From a virus (taxonomy: Duplodnaviria; Heunggongvirae; Uroviricota; Caudoviricetes), in IMG/VR virus record IMGVR_UViG_2537562190_000018: DNA of 41,714 bases; one strand, written 5' to 3'. Position numbers: made by a program. Shown here piece after piece: positions 36,001 to 41,714 of this stretch (within the stretch, counting starts at the first letter, position 1; every line of letters starts with the position of its first letter).

Positions 36001-39000
36001 GTGGCAGCATGACACCGGACATTATCCTGCAGCGTACCGGGATCGACGTGAGAGCTGTCGAACAGGGGGATGATGCATGGCACAAATTACGGCTCGGCGT
36101 CATCACCGCTTCAGAGGTTCACAATGTGATAGCAAAACCCCGCTCCGGAAAGAAATGGCCTGACATGAAAATGTCCTACTTCCACACCCTGCTTGCCGAG
36201 GTTTGCACCGGTGTGGCTCCGGAAGTTAACGCTAAGGCGCTGGCCTGGGGAAAACAGTACGAGAACGACGCCAGAGCCCTCTTTGAGTTCACTTCCGGCG
36301 TGAATGTTACTGAATCCCCGATCATCTATCGCGACGAAAGTATGCGCACCGCCTGCTCTCCCGATGGTTTATGCAGTGACGGCAACGGCCTTGAACTGAA
36401 ATGCCCGTTTACCTCCCGGGATTTCATGAAGTTCCGGCTCGGTGGTTTCGAGGCCATAAAGTCGGCTTACATGGCCCAGGTGCAGTACAGCATGTGGGTG
36501 ACGCGAAAAGATGCCTGGTACTTTGCCAACTATGACCCGCGCATGAAGCGTGAAGGCCTGCATTATGTCGTGATTGAGCGGGATGAAAATTACATGGCGA
36601 GTTTTGACGAGATGGTGCCGGAGTTCATCGAAAAAATGGACGAGGCACTGGCTGAAATTGGTTTTGTATTTGGGGAGCAATGGCGATGAAGCATCCTCAC
36701 GATAATATCCGGGTAGGCGCGATCACTTTCGTCTACTCCGTTACAAAGCGAGGCTGGGTATTTCCCGGTCTTTCTGTTATCCGAAATCCACTGAAAGCAC
36801 AGCGGCTGGCTGAAGAGATAAATAATAAACGAGGGGCTGTATGCACAAAGCATCTCCTGTTGAATTAAGAACGAGTATCGAGATGGCACATAGCCTTGCT
36901 CAAATTGGAGTCAGGTTTGTGCCAATACCAGTAGAAACAGACGAAGAATTTCATACGTTAGCCGCATCCCTTTCACAAAAGCTGGAAATGATGGCGGCGA
37001 AAGCAGAAGCAAACGAGAGAGACCCGGCATGACAACAACAGAATGCATTTTTCTGGCAGCGGGCTTCATATTCTGTGTGCTTATGCTTGCCGACATGGGA
37101 CTTGTTCAATGACACCTCAGCAAGAAAACGCCCTTCGCAGCATTGCCCGTCAGGCTAATTCTGAAATCAAAAAAGCCAGACAGCAGTTTCCGGATAAAAA
37201 CGTCGATGACATTTGCCGTAGCGTACTGAAGAAGCACCGCGAAACGGTAACGCTGATGGGATTCACACCGACTCATTTAAGCCTGGCAATCGGCATGTTA
37301 AACGGCGTTTTTAAGGAACGGTGAACATGAAAAGCAAAATCATCAGGGAGCTACAGGCTCCTTTTTTATTATTCGCATTTACCCTCAAGCGTATTAACCA
37401 ACAATTCAGGGATTAATGAAAGATGGCGGACATCATTGATTCAGCATCAGAAATTGAAGAATTACAGCGCAATACAGCAATAAAAATGCGTCGTCTGAAC
37501 TACCAGACTATATCCGCCACTCATTGTTGTGAGTGTGGCGATCCCATAGATGAACGAAGACGCCTGGTCGTTCAGGGTTGTCGGACTTGTGCAAGTTGCC
37601 AGGAGGATCTGGAGCTTATCAGTAAACAGAGAGGTTCGAAGTGAGCGAAATTAACTCTCAGGCACTGCGTGAAGCGGCAGAGAAAGCCGGTGAAGATAAG
37701 TGGCAGGCTAAAAAAATAAATGGTGATTTTTTCGTTATTCGTCACGGTAGTTATACAAGACAGCATGGCTACACATCGTATCAACCCATTGCGGAGATTG
37801 ATTGTAAGCCAGTCCGGGATTTTGTTGCCAAGGCTAATCCGGCTACCGTGCTGGAATTACTGGATGAACTGGAAGCAGCAAAAAAGCGCATTGCAGAACT
37901 GGAAGCGCGGGAAATACTGCTCCCGGAACGTAGCAGCATGCTTCATCGAACAGATTTTCACGATGATTACCAAACGGTAATGGCATACAAAGTTTCTGAA
38001 GTCATCGATGCAATCCGCGCTACTGGCATTCGCATCAAAGGAGAGTGAGATGATTCACTACCACGGTGGGCCTATTACTCCTGATACGTGCGCAATGAGA
38101 GCATGGAAAGGGCGACATGCGTTTATCAGTTTTGCGCATTCAGGCCAGATCAATCTCGCGGCTGAATACTGTCAGTCGTTCGCGCTGGACAACGGTGCAT
38201 TCACCGCCTGGAAAGCAGCTGGCAAAAACAAAATCGACTGGAGCGATTACTACGAGTTTGTTGCTCGCTGGAAGAATCACCCAGGATTCGATTTTGCCAT
38301 TATCCCGGATGTTATTGATGGCGGAGAGGAGGAAAATGATGCGCTTCTGAATGAGTGGCCTCACGGAAAACTAGCTGGCGTTCCAGTGTGGCACGTGAAT
38401 GAAAGTGACGAGCGATTTATTCATTTGTGCAATGAGTTTCCGCGAGTGGCTATCGGTAGTTGTGGCGACTATGACGTAAAGCGCCCAACTCTTGCGGTAG
38501 CCAGAATGAAAGACCTGATTCGTCACATTGTTGATGGGCATGGTCAGCCGGTTACGAAACTACATGGATTGCGCATGTTAAATCCGCTGATATTCACAAA
38601 ATTACCCTTAGCCAGCGCAGATAGTACGAACGTCGCTCGAAACATCGGTATTGATAAAGCCTGGTCTGGGGCTTATGCACCTGCAAGTAAAGAGACACGC
38701 GCAGCATTAATGGTAGAACGGATTGAGGCACACAATAGCCCTGGTTCTCTTGCGTATTGTGAACAACGCGACCGCTTTGAAATGCAATTGCAACTAGCAC
38801 TTTAAGGACTAACAAATGACCACTATTACCAAAGAACGTATTGAATTGTTCATTAAAAATCCGCTTGAAAACGGGCTTACTCGTGGCGAACAAATGGAAC
38901 TGGCACGAATTGCACTGGCATCACTGGAACGCGAACTGATTCGCCACGAGCATGCCAAATGGTCTGACTCCACATTTGGCTGCGTTGGCCCCATTGGTCC

Positions 39001-41714
39001 ACTGAAACACCTCTCAAAAGAGGCTCTGGAAGCCGCAGCCGAACCAGACGATCTCAGCGAGTGGGCTGATATGCATTTCCTGTTGTGGGATGCACAGCGC
39101 CGTGCTGGCATCAGCGATGCTGAAATTACCGCTGCTATGGAAGATAAATTGAAGATCAACATGGAGCGCCAGTGGCCTGAACCAAAAGATGGTGAGCCTC
39201 GCTTGCACATTAAAGAACCCGGCAACTCTCCGGTAATTCCGGATGGTTTATCCACGGTATGCGCTGAGGCTTATCAGGTTGTAGGAGTTATGGCAGATGC
39301 GCTTGGTGTATTCGGTGATGCAGCAGTACAGAAAGTTCTGGATAACCTGTCACAGCAAAAACTTGTTCACAGAGATGTGCTGCCGTTCTCGCTTCCGGTA
39401 ACTCCGGATGGTTGGATAAGCTGTAGTGAGCTAATGCCAGATGATGGTCAGCACGTAATTATTTTATGTGATGGCGCATTCGTTCTTTATGCGCAATATC
39501 GAGACGGAGAGTTTTTCGATATTGTCCGCAATGGTGATGAATTTTTCGAAACACAGAGTCGCAATGTAACCGACTGGATGCAACTACCAGAACCTCCTCT
39601 TTGATAGCTAAGCTTATACATATCTTTTACATCAGCAATCTATTGTTAATCTCCAATCAATGTTACGTTGTCATCTCTCTCATGCTTTGGAGGTAGTGAT
39701 ATGTCTTGTCCAAAATGCGGTTCTGGAAATATTGCAAAAGAAAAAACAATGCGTGGATGGTCTGATGATTATGTGTGCTGCGATTGCGGATACAACGACT
39801 CTAAAGACGCATTTGGAGAGCGTGGTAAAAACGATTTTGTCAAAATTAATAAAGAACGCGAAGGCAACGAAAAAAGCTAATTTATTTATTCATATATGAA
39901 AACAATGTAACCAATATTCGAATTGAAGAACTGAAAGAACACCAAGCCGCCTGATGGCGGTTTTTTTTATTGGAGACAAGAAATGTCAGATTTGGCTATG
40001 AAGGTTTTGAAATGGCAATCGACTGGCGATGTTGGCATCAGTAGCGCAACTCTTGCCTCAATCGCATGTGGACTGAAAAAGAATATCTATGGTCATCACT
40101 TCGGCGCTCCCCATGACGCAGCCGATTTCAGACGATGCGTTGCACTTGTTGAGCAGATTCCAGAAATCAGAGATTCATTCAACAAGGTTGCAAAGCGCGT
40201 TCCGGCATTCAAAGGAATCCTCAACGAATGGGATTCCCTCGTTGCTCTGTTGAAGTCTGAAATGAAGATACACGGAAACAAAGCACCAGAGACTTACAGA
40301 AGAATCAGCGAGCTACGCAAGGACTAACCATGAAATAACACCGCCTCACACTCGGTGAGGCCTGTTCATTGCTCAATGATATCCAGACCTACCATCGCCG
40401 CATCAATGCGGCTTTTTCTTGCGTGTAATTGCGGAGACTTTGCGATGTACTTGACACTTCAGGAGTGGAACGCTCGCCAGCGACGCCCAAGAAGCCTTGA
40501 AACAGTTCGTCGATGGGTGCGCGAATGCAGGATATTCCCTCCTCCGGTTAAGGATGGAAGAGAGTATCTGTTCCACGAATCAGCGGTAAAGGTTGACTTA
40601 AATCGACCAGTAACAGGTAGCCTTTTGAAGAGGATCAGAAATGGGAAGAAGGCGAAGTCATGAGCGCCGGGATTTACCCCCTAACCTTTATATAAGAAAC
40701 AATGGATATTACTGCTACAGGGACCCAAGGACGGGTAAAGAGTTTGGTTTAGGCCGAGACAGGAGGATAGCAATCACTGAAGCAATACAGGCCAATATTG
40801 AGTTACTCTCAGACAGCGGACGCAAATCACTAATAGACAGAATTAAAGGCGGTGACGCAATCACTCTTCATGTGTGGCTTGACCGATATGAAACAATCCT
40901 CACCGAAAGGGGGATCAGGCCGAAAACTCTACTCGACTACGCCAGCAAAATCAGGGCAATCCGAAGAAAATTGCCGGACAAACCGCTCACTGACATATCA
41001 ACGAAAGAAGTGGCAGCAATGCTAAACACCTACGTAGCAGAAGGTAAAGCAGCTTCCGCAAAATTAATCAGGTCAACCCTTGTTGACGTTTTTCGTGAAG
41101 CAATAGCCGAGGGGCATGTGGCAACGAATCCGGTAACAGCAACCCGTACAGCAAAGTCAGAAGTAAGGCGCTCAAGGCTGACAGCTAATGAGTATGTCGA
41201 GATTTACCATGCAGCCGAACCTCTCCCTATCTGGCTAAGGCTGGCGATGGATTTGGCCGTCGTTACAGGGCAGAGAGTCGGCGATTTGTGCAGAATGAAA
41301 TGGTCAGACATAAACGACAACCATCTTCACATTGAACAGAGTAAAACAGGGGCTAAACTCGCCATTCCGCTAACGCTAACGATTGACGCGCTCAATATCT
41401 CATTGGCTGATACACTACAGAAATGCAGGGAGGCCAGCAGCAGTGAAACTATAATCGCATCAAAGCATTACGATCCTCTTTCCCCGAAAACAGTATCAAA
41501 GTATTTTACAAAGGCGAGAAATGCATCTGGACTCTCATTTGATGGAAACCCGCCAACATTCCATGAACTGCGTAGCCTGTCAGCGAGGCTATACCGGAAC
41601 CAGATTGGCGATAAATTTGCTCAACGTCTTCTCGGGCATAAATCAGATTCAATGGCGGCGCGGTATAGAGACAGCCGTGGACGGGAATGGGACAAAATTG
41701 AAATCGACAAATGA

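Follow-up and report, generated by a model that had tools for sequence, protein, structure and literature searches.

The 41,714-nucleotide (nt) stretch of DNA analysed here, IMG/VR record IMGVR_UViG_2537562190_000018 (the window), is a lambdoid Stx1a prophage that ends at its integrase gene. Its exo-xis region encodes a protein of 262 amino acids (aa) that combines a DUF550 domain with a DUF551 domain. This protein is probably an accessory, non-structural enzyme, an active MazZ-like purine deoxynucleoside triphosphate (dNTP) pyrophosphohydrolase that would reshape the dGTP/dATP pool early and that bears an exchangeable binding barrel. A Pfam scan assigned aa 42-137 to PF04447 (dATP-dGTP_PPHyd, formerly DUF550), with positions 1-96 of the 97 in the profile aligned (141.5 bits, the cut-off being 23; E = 1e-41), and aa 199-261 to PF04448 (DUF551), with positions 1-67 of 68 aligned (63.7 bits, the cut-off being 22; E = 2.9e-17). 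Both matches are far beyond chance. The present name of PF04447 presumably goes back to work on the enzyme of Acinetobacter phage SH-Ab 15497. An earlier sequence-only reading of the window had proposed that the N-terminal half is DUF550, resembling the small all-alpha nucleoside triphosphate (NTP) pyrophosphohydrolase-like domain of prophages, and that the C-terminal half is a DUF551 domain with a W.QLPEPP ending. These assignments are borne out by the two Pfam matches, by the profile match to MazZ described below and by the C-terminus of the protein, ...TDWMQLPEPPL.

The protein is an already catalogued accessory gene product of an Stx prophage, and its exact sequence is in RefSeq, where the entry at the same coordinates (WP_000208001.1) is named 'dATP/dGTP pyrophosphohydrolase domain-containing protein'. 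The window protein matched only PHROG families of unknown function. NCBIfam returned no match for it, and no family among the PADLOC defence models matched at E ≤ 1.

The probable MazZ-like catalytic half

Along chain residues 17-106, S-2L MazZ in the Protein Data Bank (PDB; entry 7ODY) was matched at E = 4.7e-5 by a profile built from 16 diverse DUF550 cores. This related, MazG-like pyrophosphohydrolase is (d)GTP-specific and of solved structure, and the roles of its individual residues have been described (PMC8342488). Residue numbers in the deposited chain exceed those of the paper by six, an offset deduced from K31, E34, E35, E38, the D43-H46 loop, E50, D53 and D60. In the resulting alignment the metal-binding residues E35, E38, E50 and D53 of MazZ correspond to E69, E72, E82 and D85 of the window protein, which form the motifs E69-A-L-E72 and E82-W-A-D85. 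The MazZ pocket residues W15 and D60 correspond to W49 and D92, the second-chain contacts K76, N80, W85, R94 and H95 to K111, N115, W120, R129 and H131, and the transition-state arginine R83 to R118. All 12 mapped metal-binding and pocket residues are kept, including the aspartate that contacts the 2-amino group (N2) of guanine. Of 150 representatives of clusters formed at 50% identity, no fewer than 140 conserve each of these positions, the remainder being mostly fragments, and at least 143 conserve the acidic residues of the ExxE...ExxD motif.

Since all 12 mapped MazZ residues are kept, the favoured interpretation of the N-terminal half is an active MazZ-like purine dNTP pyrophosphohydrolase. 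Residues 42-137 are, on this evidence, best read as a MazZ/DUF550-type member of the all-alpha NTP-pyrophosphohydrolase (MazG-like) superfamily that would be catalytically competent and would have a purine pocket of the guanine type. The hidden Markov model (HMM) of canonical MazG (PF03819) gave no match at E ≤ 1 in the Pfam scan, and the kinship is at the superfamily level only. The view of the sequence-only reading that no function can be read from the sequence was too pessimistic at the biochemical level, given that the family has a characterised member and that every mapped catalytic and pocket residue of MazZ is present.

In the mechanism we propose E69, E72, E82 and D85 would hold divalent metal ions, while a purine deoxynucleotide would be bound in a pocket lined by W49, F88, L89 and D92 together with K111, N115, R118, W120, R129 and H131. 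The counterparts of the latter six residues in MazZ belong to the second chain of the dimer, and the window protein would be expected to have the MazG/HisE helical fold and to form a homotetramer. The reaction predicted for the enzyme is hydrolysis of dGTP, and probably of dATP, to the monophosphate and pyrophosphate (PPi), and the purine dNTP pool would be lowered or reshaped early after infection or induction. From the core the chain continues through the short linker SPV[I/T]PDG, present twice as a 20-nt direct repeat, into an optional helical module and then into the modelled DUF551 barrel, which is exchanged as a cassette between phages and between N-terminal partners.

Several observations weigh against an active enzyme of this type. 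Searched as a single sequence with phmmer against the PDB, the protein matched MazZ (7ODY) only marginally, at E = 0.69, and the equivalence of E72 with MazZ E38 requires that a two-residue gap in the HMMER alignment be shifted, although the ExxE spacing is alike in both proteins. A full-length AlphaFold2 (AF2) model built with 46 close homologues contains helices in the catalytic half but with a per-residue confidence (pLDDT) below 50. This low value arises because the alignment is nearly invariant there, and the weakness of the model means that the fold is supported by sequence only; a Foldseek search of the model against the PDB gave nothing significant. It is not obvious why a phage whose DNA has the ordinary A/T/G/C bases should need to produce dGMP, and our literature search found no enzyme assay or functional study for any lambdoid DUF550 protein. 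With regard to the copy in the window, PL and N are deleted and no promoter-like site was found on the + strand within 33800-40500.

Mosaic architecture and the DUF551 cassette

The sequence-only reading had described a fusion protein. Two domains are indeed present, but a simple two-domain fusion is not what the sequence contains: the protein is a four-part mosaic with a swappable C-terminal cassette (Table 1). The first 114 nt, within the leader, are 92-96% identical to EaA genes of Salmonella phages, several of them P22-like, and of Escherichia phages, and the leader matches phrog_3323, phrog_10451 and phrog_660. At loci L055, L044 and L053 other leaders stand in its place. The parts downstream of the core are delimited by a 20-nt direct repeat, TCCGGTAAYTCCGGATGGTT, at 39229 and 39394. 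The two copies lie 165 nt (55 codons) apart and in frame, whereas no such repeat is expected by chance. The same 20-mer occurs in 74 of the 84 loci that were fetched, in many cases as two copies spaced as in the window, and the homology of relatives to the query tends to end just past one or other copy, at about aa 144-157 or at aa 201-211. Of the middle module, the AF2 model predicts helices at residues 147-162 and 168-180, both with pLDDT below 50.

Table 1. Parts of the DUF550-DUF551 gene and their positions in the window
Feature	Position	Strand	Basis or remark
Whole coding sequence, 262 aa + stop, ATG start, intact open reading frame	38816..39604	+	identical to RefSeq WP_000208001.1
Shine-Dalgarno-like AAGGA, 7 nt 5' of ATG	38804..38808	+	overlaps stop codon (38803-38805) of DpdA-like gene
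N-terminal leader, aa 1-41, predicted helical	38816..38938	+	shared with EaA or EaA-like genes
PF04447 MazZ-like catalytic core, aa 42-137	38939..39226	+	Pfam; profile against PDB; nearly invariant in homologues
Putative metal-binding motif E69-x-x-E72 ... E82-x-x-D85 (ExxE-9-ExxD)	39020..39070	+	alignment with MazZ residue roles
Junction repeat copy 1, TCCGGTAATTCCGGATGGTT, encodes S-P-V-I-P-D-G	39229..39248	+	homology of many relatives ends just 3'
Optional middle module, about aa 145-193, two predicted helices, low model confidence	39249..39393	+	phrog_28884 at aa 145-195
Junction repeat copy 2, TCCGGTAACTCCGGATGGTT, encodes L-P-V-T-P-D-G	39394..39413	+	19/20 identical to copy 1
DUF551 domain, aa 199-262, five-stranded beta-barrel model, flanks DGWISCSExMP and WMxLPEPP	39410..39601	+	
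Hypervariable core of DUF551 cassette, aa 209-253	39440..39574	+	cassette diversity behind near-identical N-terminal parts

Translations of the related loci display these parts in other combinations. One locus (L055) has another leader, the same core, a single junction and exactly the DUF551 cassette of the window, with no middle module. Conversely, L061, L072, L073 and L078 have the leader and core of the window, a single junction and other DUF551 cassettes, again with no middle module, while in L062, L066, L067 and L038 the junction is followed by C-terminal modules that are not DUF551.

The variability is sharply confined to the cassette. When the protein is aligned with 45 homologues, hardly any variation is seen in residues 1-208, while residues 209-253 are unalignable and variable in length, and are bracketed by the conserved TPDGWISCSERMP and THWMPLPEPP. 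Within these flanks W200, I201, S202, C203 and P208 are invariant and W254, M255, L257 and P258-P261 nearly so. Among 115 proteins whose N-terminal parts share a mean identity of 97.6% there are at least 13 cassette types (less than 60% identical to one another), and the median pairwise identity of the cassettes is 34%. The cassette of the window protein recurs, at 79-96% identity, in stand-alone DUF551 proteins of 115-125 aa that carry at least four different leaders, and nt 579-782 of the gene match Ea22-like genes of Stx2a phages at 91.7% nt identity. Recombination of already existing modules at the conserved linker therefore accounts for at least part of the cassette diversity; it is the usual mode by which lambdoid genomes are assembled. 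Hypermutation of the DUF551 core in situ, for example by a diversity-generating retroelement, was also considered and was rejected on the grounds that the cassettes differ by insertions and deletions and that the identical cassette is also met with behind different modules. The exact junction repeat and the breadth of cassette exchange are the only points that are new, and mildly so.

The structure model of DUF551 has five strands with a pLDDT of 83.6, and its structure matches in BFVD are other DUF551 proteins. The model suggests a small Tudor/SH3-like five-stranded barrel that may serve as a binding module, most likely supplying binding or targeting rather than catalysis. The paper reporting the nuclear magnetic resonance (NMR) structure of Ea22 describes DUF551 as a portable domain and names a dATP/dGTP pyrophosphohydrolase among its carriers (PMC10834534). 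The Ea22-like gene of the window itself (37641-38048, +) is short, encoding 135 aa with the Ead_Ea22 domain only and no C-terminal domain.

Genomic context and distribution

The window carries lambda-like structural and lysis genes, the antiterminator gene Q at 32095-32529 (-) and, downstream of Q, stx1B (89 aa) and stx1A (about 315 aa) at 30362-31597 (-). A DUF1737/SASA esterase gene (NanS-p-like) follows the stx genes at 28051-29862. On the + strand the order of genes is DUF2528, cIII, kil, gam, bet, exo, small open reading frames (ORFs), a TraR/orf73-like gene, an Ea22-like gene, a DpdA-like gene, the DUF550 gene, a gene for an Eag zinc-ribbon protein, a hypothetical gene, xis and int. Annotated relatives share with the window the placement of the DUF550 gene between exo and xis-int, on the same strand, which corresponds to the exo-xis or 'ea' region. 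In intact relatives cIII, kil, gam, bet and exo precede the gene and xis and int follow it, and upstream cI, a possible N gene and ral are retained in their customary order; in the annotated records that carry the identical gene torS stands next to the integrase gene. The torS prophages of strains 13E0767 and C7, for example, retain cI, cII and the replication genes; several structural genes of the 13E0767 prophage carry frameshifts according to the annotation. In lambda the exo-xis region is transcribed from PL. The gene order suggests that in the intact relatives the DUF550 gene occupies a position in the early-left (PL) operon, PL and N themselves having been identified in none of the sequences analysed.

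The Stx1a prophage in the window is defective. An insertion sequence (IS) of the IS3 family, with HTH_Tnp_1 and rve domains in two overlapping frames, occupies 32621-33833 (+) between Q and the early-left genes. Collinearity with the intact relatives starts only at 33949, and the region of cI, cro, cII, O, P, nin, N, PL and ral is therefore missing. Expression of this copy of the DUF550 gene is doubtful because the IS3-family element stands in place of the immunity, replication, N and PL region. Several terminator-like sites lie upstream of the gene within 33800-40500, and the copy may be silent though its sequence is undamaged.

Some neighbouring features should also be recorded. The Eag protein (59 aa, 39701-39880, +) is a zinc ribbon with a sub-threshold match to Lar, a restriction alleviation family (E = 9.6e-5, 23 bits against a cut-off of 28.6), and in two cluster representatives a Lar-like domain is found in the same protein as DUF550. 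An antisense ORF of 148 aa (38809-39255, -) lies wholly within the DUF550 gene. It was taken as spurious by its position only, inside a well-supported + strand gene.

The gene is present at 100% nt identity in five complete Escherichia coli genomes, from sources given as cattle, cow, bovine feces and rabbit farm, and within the Stx1a-converting phage Stx1a_EH2115. Pieces of it occur in 2565 of 5426 complete E. coli genomes, at up to nine places per genome. The exact combination of modules is rare, being found at 80% coverage or more in six of the 5426 genomes (five identical, one at 81% coverage) and in one phage record. In the search for homologues all of the 8000 candidate proteins that were scored had E ≤ 1e-5, and each of the best 120 of the 8000 carries both Pfam domains of the window protein, with 79-99% identity. 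An exhaustive search of cluster representatives at 50% identity yielded 4232 clusters at E ≤ 1e-3. PF04447 is present in 146 of the 149 nearest representatives, 37 of these 146 also having DUF551.

Two departures from the intact gene were seen among the relatives. In E. coli 2013C-4538 (L002, 3001-3783) and in many genomes of STEC (E. coli strains that produce Shiga toxin) of the O103/O26 type, RefSeq splits the homologue into a 'partial' 5' piece and a 606-nt coding sequence that starts from an internal codon. These split homologues are 99.8% identical to the window over nt 1-627, and the split may be a frameshift or an artefact of annotation. In IMG/VR UViG_2744054854_000008 (L027, 4001-5242) the DUF550 frame passes the second junction and the beginning of DUF551 and then reads directly on into the C-terminal portion of an integrase, as if a deletion had fused the two genes.

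Alternative functions and known relatives

The gene upstream of the DUF550 gene (38050-38805, +) ends 10 nt before the DUF550 start codon. It has no Pfam match and is named 'hypothetical protein' in RefSeq. It matches phrog_887, 'queuine tRNA-ribosyltransferase', at E = 1.8e-102, and its product shares 92% identity with a Salmonella phage SPN3UB protein and 36-40% with proteins of SEN1, HK106 and PEAT2, all of which are listed as 'only DpdA' phages (Hutinet et al. 2019). Judged by these similarities the gene probably encodes a solo DNA guanine transglycosylase, which, if true, would bring 7-deazaguanine (dPreQ0) modification to Stx and other lambdoid prophages. The two genes could then act as one module, the DUF550 enzyme trimming the dGTP pool or clearing deazaguanine nucleotides. 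In addition to the closeness of the genes, this view draws on the fact that in 23 of 82 loci a DpdA-like gene directly precedes the DUF550 gene, and that in two more (L020 and L054) a 67%-identical homologue lies 1.5-2 kb further upstream. It also draws on Cellulophaga phage phiST, which has 7-deazaguanine in its DNA and in which a gene matching dUTPase (PF08761) or MazG (PF12643) belongs to the five-gene cluster of DpdA3 (PMC10516641). However, in 57 of the 82 loci the DUF550 gene has no DpdA-like neighbour, on which ground obligate coupling was rejected, and the adjacent pairs are at least 98% identical and look like one inherited block. Furthermore, 'only DpdA' phages exist, and DpdA exchanges bases on finished DNA, needing no deoxynucleoside monophosphate (dNMP; PMC6884629, PMC10516641). 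A functional link between the two genes is possible but unsupported, and we consider the two-gene module very unlikely.

Another proposal is that the MazG-like domain destroys a nucleotide of host immunity, be it a (p)ppGpp-like alarmone, a signalling nucleotide or a toxic or modified dNTP, while DUF551 adapts the protein to different hosts. Such a counter-defence role has a precedent in the depletion of (p)ppGpp by Atd1 (bioRxiv 10.1101/2022.06.09.495361). The accessory neighbours, namely the DpdA-like candidate DNA-modification gene, the zinc-ribbon gene with its weak Lar-like match and, in intact relatives, ral, would suit it, as would the hypervariability of DUF551, which is what an arms-race interface would be expected to display. 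The pocket residues match those of the (d)GTP-specific MazZ, however, down to the aspartate at the 2-amino group of guanine. Atd1 is in a different MazG branch, the searches of PADLOC and NCBIfam gave no match, and the diversity of the cassettes stems at least partly from recombination of pre-existing modules. Counter-defence, which the sequence-only reading had named as plausible for such proteins, finds no direct support in the present results and is an unlikely function. A broader proposal makes DUF551 itself the key element, as a hypervariable, cassette-exchanged recognition module that is joined through the recombinogenic linker SPVTPDGW to different effector heads, among them the MazZ-like dNTP pyrophosphohydrolase, Ea22-like coiled coils and short stand-alone leaders, and that is aimed at rapidly changing host targets. 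We regard this as unlikely; were it true, the combinations of enzyme and barrel would constitute a modular toolkit for host takeover or counter-defence. In a weaker variant the enzyme would cooperate with the adjacent solo DpdA in guanine-directed DNA modification. Silent cargo, an unexpressed remnant without current function in a defective prophage, is likewise a very unlikely explanation of the gene. The IS3-family element, the loss of cI, cro, O, P, N, PL and ral, the lack of a promoter-like site on the + strand and the terminator-like sites upstream are in keeping with such a state. Nevertheless, the ORF is intact, is identical to copies in prophages that keep the region from cI to int and retains every catalytic residue, and silence would concern this copy alone, not the function of the protein. 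Finally, the enzyme might supply dGMP to PurZ for a 2-aminoadenine (Z) genome, as in SH-Ab 15497 and S-2L, a role suggested by its membership of the same Pfam family as the characterised DUF550 enzyme. To our knowledge lambdoid phages do not carry Z-DNA. No PurZ-, DatZ- or DpoZ-like gene was found among the larger ORFs of the window that were scanned, all of the large ones being structural, lysis, toxin, IS or recombination genes, or in the annotations of the relatives, and therefore the Z-genome role of the characterised relatives does not apply. This role was rejected and we give it next to no weight. The DUF550 proteins of Z-phages are reported to form one monophyletic group (Nucleic Acids Research (NAR) 2026; PMC12884076).

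The MazZ-like purine dNTP pyrophosphohydrolase thus remains the probable function. Taken alone the assignment matters little, as RefSeq already lists the protein by its correct family name and the literature already notes its architecture. Homologous segments are, however, present in about half of the complete E. coli genomes, and the activity of one lambdoid enzyme would annotate thousands of prophage genes and would tell whether purine dNTP pools are manipulated by temperate phages that have ordinary DNA. The sharply bounded variability of DUF551 behind a conserved 20-nt junction, in turn, offers a clean example of module exchange and a handle on the ligands of DUF551.

A close enzymatic precedent is the DUF5664-DUF550 protein of SH-Ab 15497, which is reported to convert dGTP and dATP to dGMP and dAMP with release of PPi (Zhou et al. 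2021, as described in PMC12884076 and PMC8342488). Its catalytic domain is of the same Pfam family as that of the window protein, and the same chemistry, dNTP to dNMP and PPi, would be expected of the window protein. The partner domain is DUF5664 in the Acinetobacter phage, while in the window protein it is the optional helical module and DUF551, and the SH-Ab 15497 gene lies in a PurZ/DatZ Z-genome cluster. The lambdoid prophage of the window has no cluster of this kind, and its gene is located among the accessory genes between exo and xis. S-2L MazZ is homologous to the window core at the level of profiles, with the mapped residues retained. It is a single-domain protein of 111 residues that acts upstream of PurZ, whereas the core in the window is preceded by a leader and followed by C-terminal modules. 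Atd1, a phage MazG-like enzyme reported to deplete (p)ppGpp and to protect against TIR-STING toxicity (bioRxiv 10.1101/2022.06.09.495361), is likewise a phage-encoded member of the MazG-like superfamily found among accessory and anti-defence genes. It would belong to a different branch of the superfamily, and its reported substrate differs. With respect to the C-terminal half, the V2 variant of Ea22 in Stx phages and YfdS of the cryptic prophage CPS-53 also end in a DUF551 module (PMC10834534, PMC4776307), but the N-terminal part is a coiled coil in Ea22 and an unrelated sequence in YfdS rather than an enzyme as in the window protein. The EaA or 'DUF550 domain-containing' proteins of P22-like and lambdoid prophages of E. 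coli and Salmonella resemble the window protein in leader, core, junction and early-left position, from which the window gene is set apart by the rarity of its exact combination of modules.

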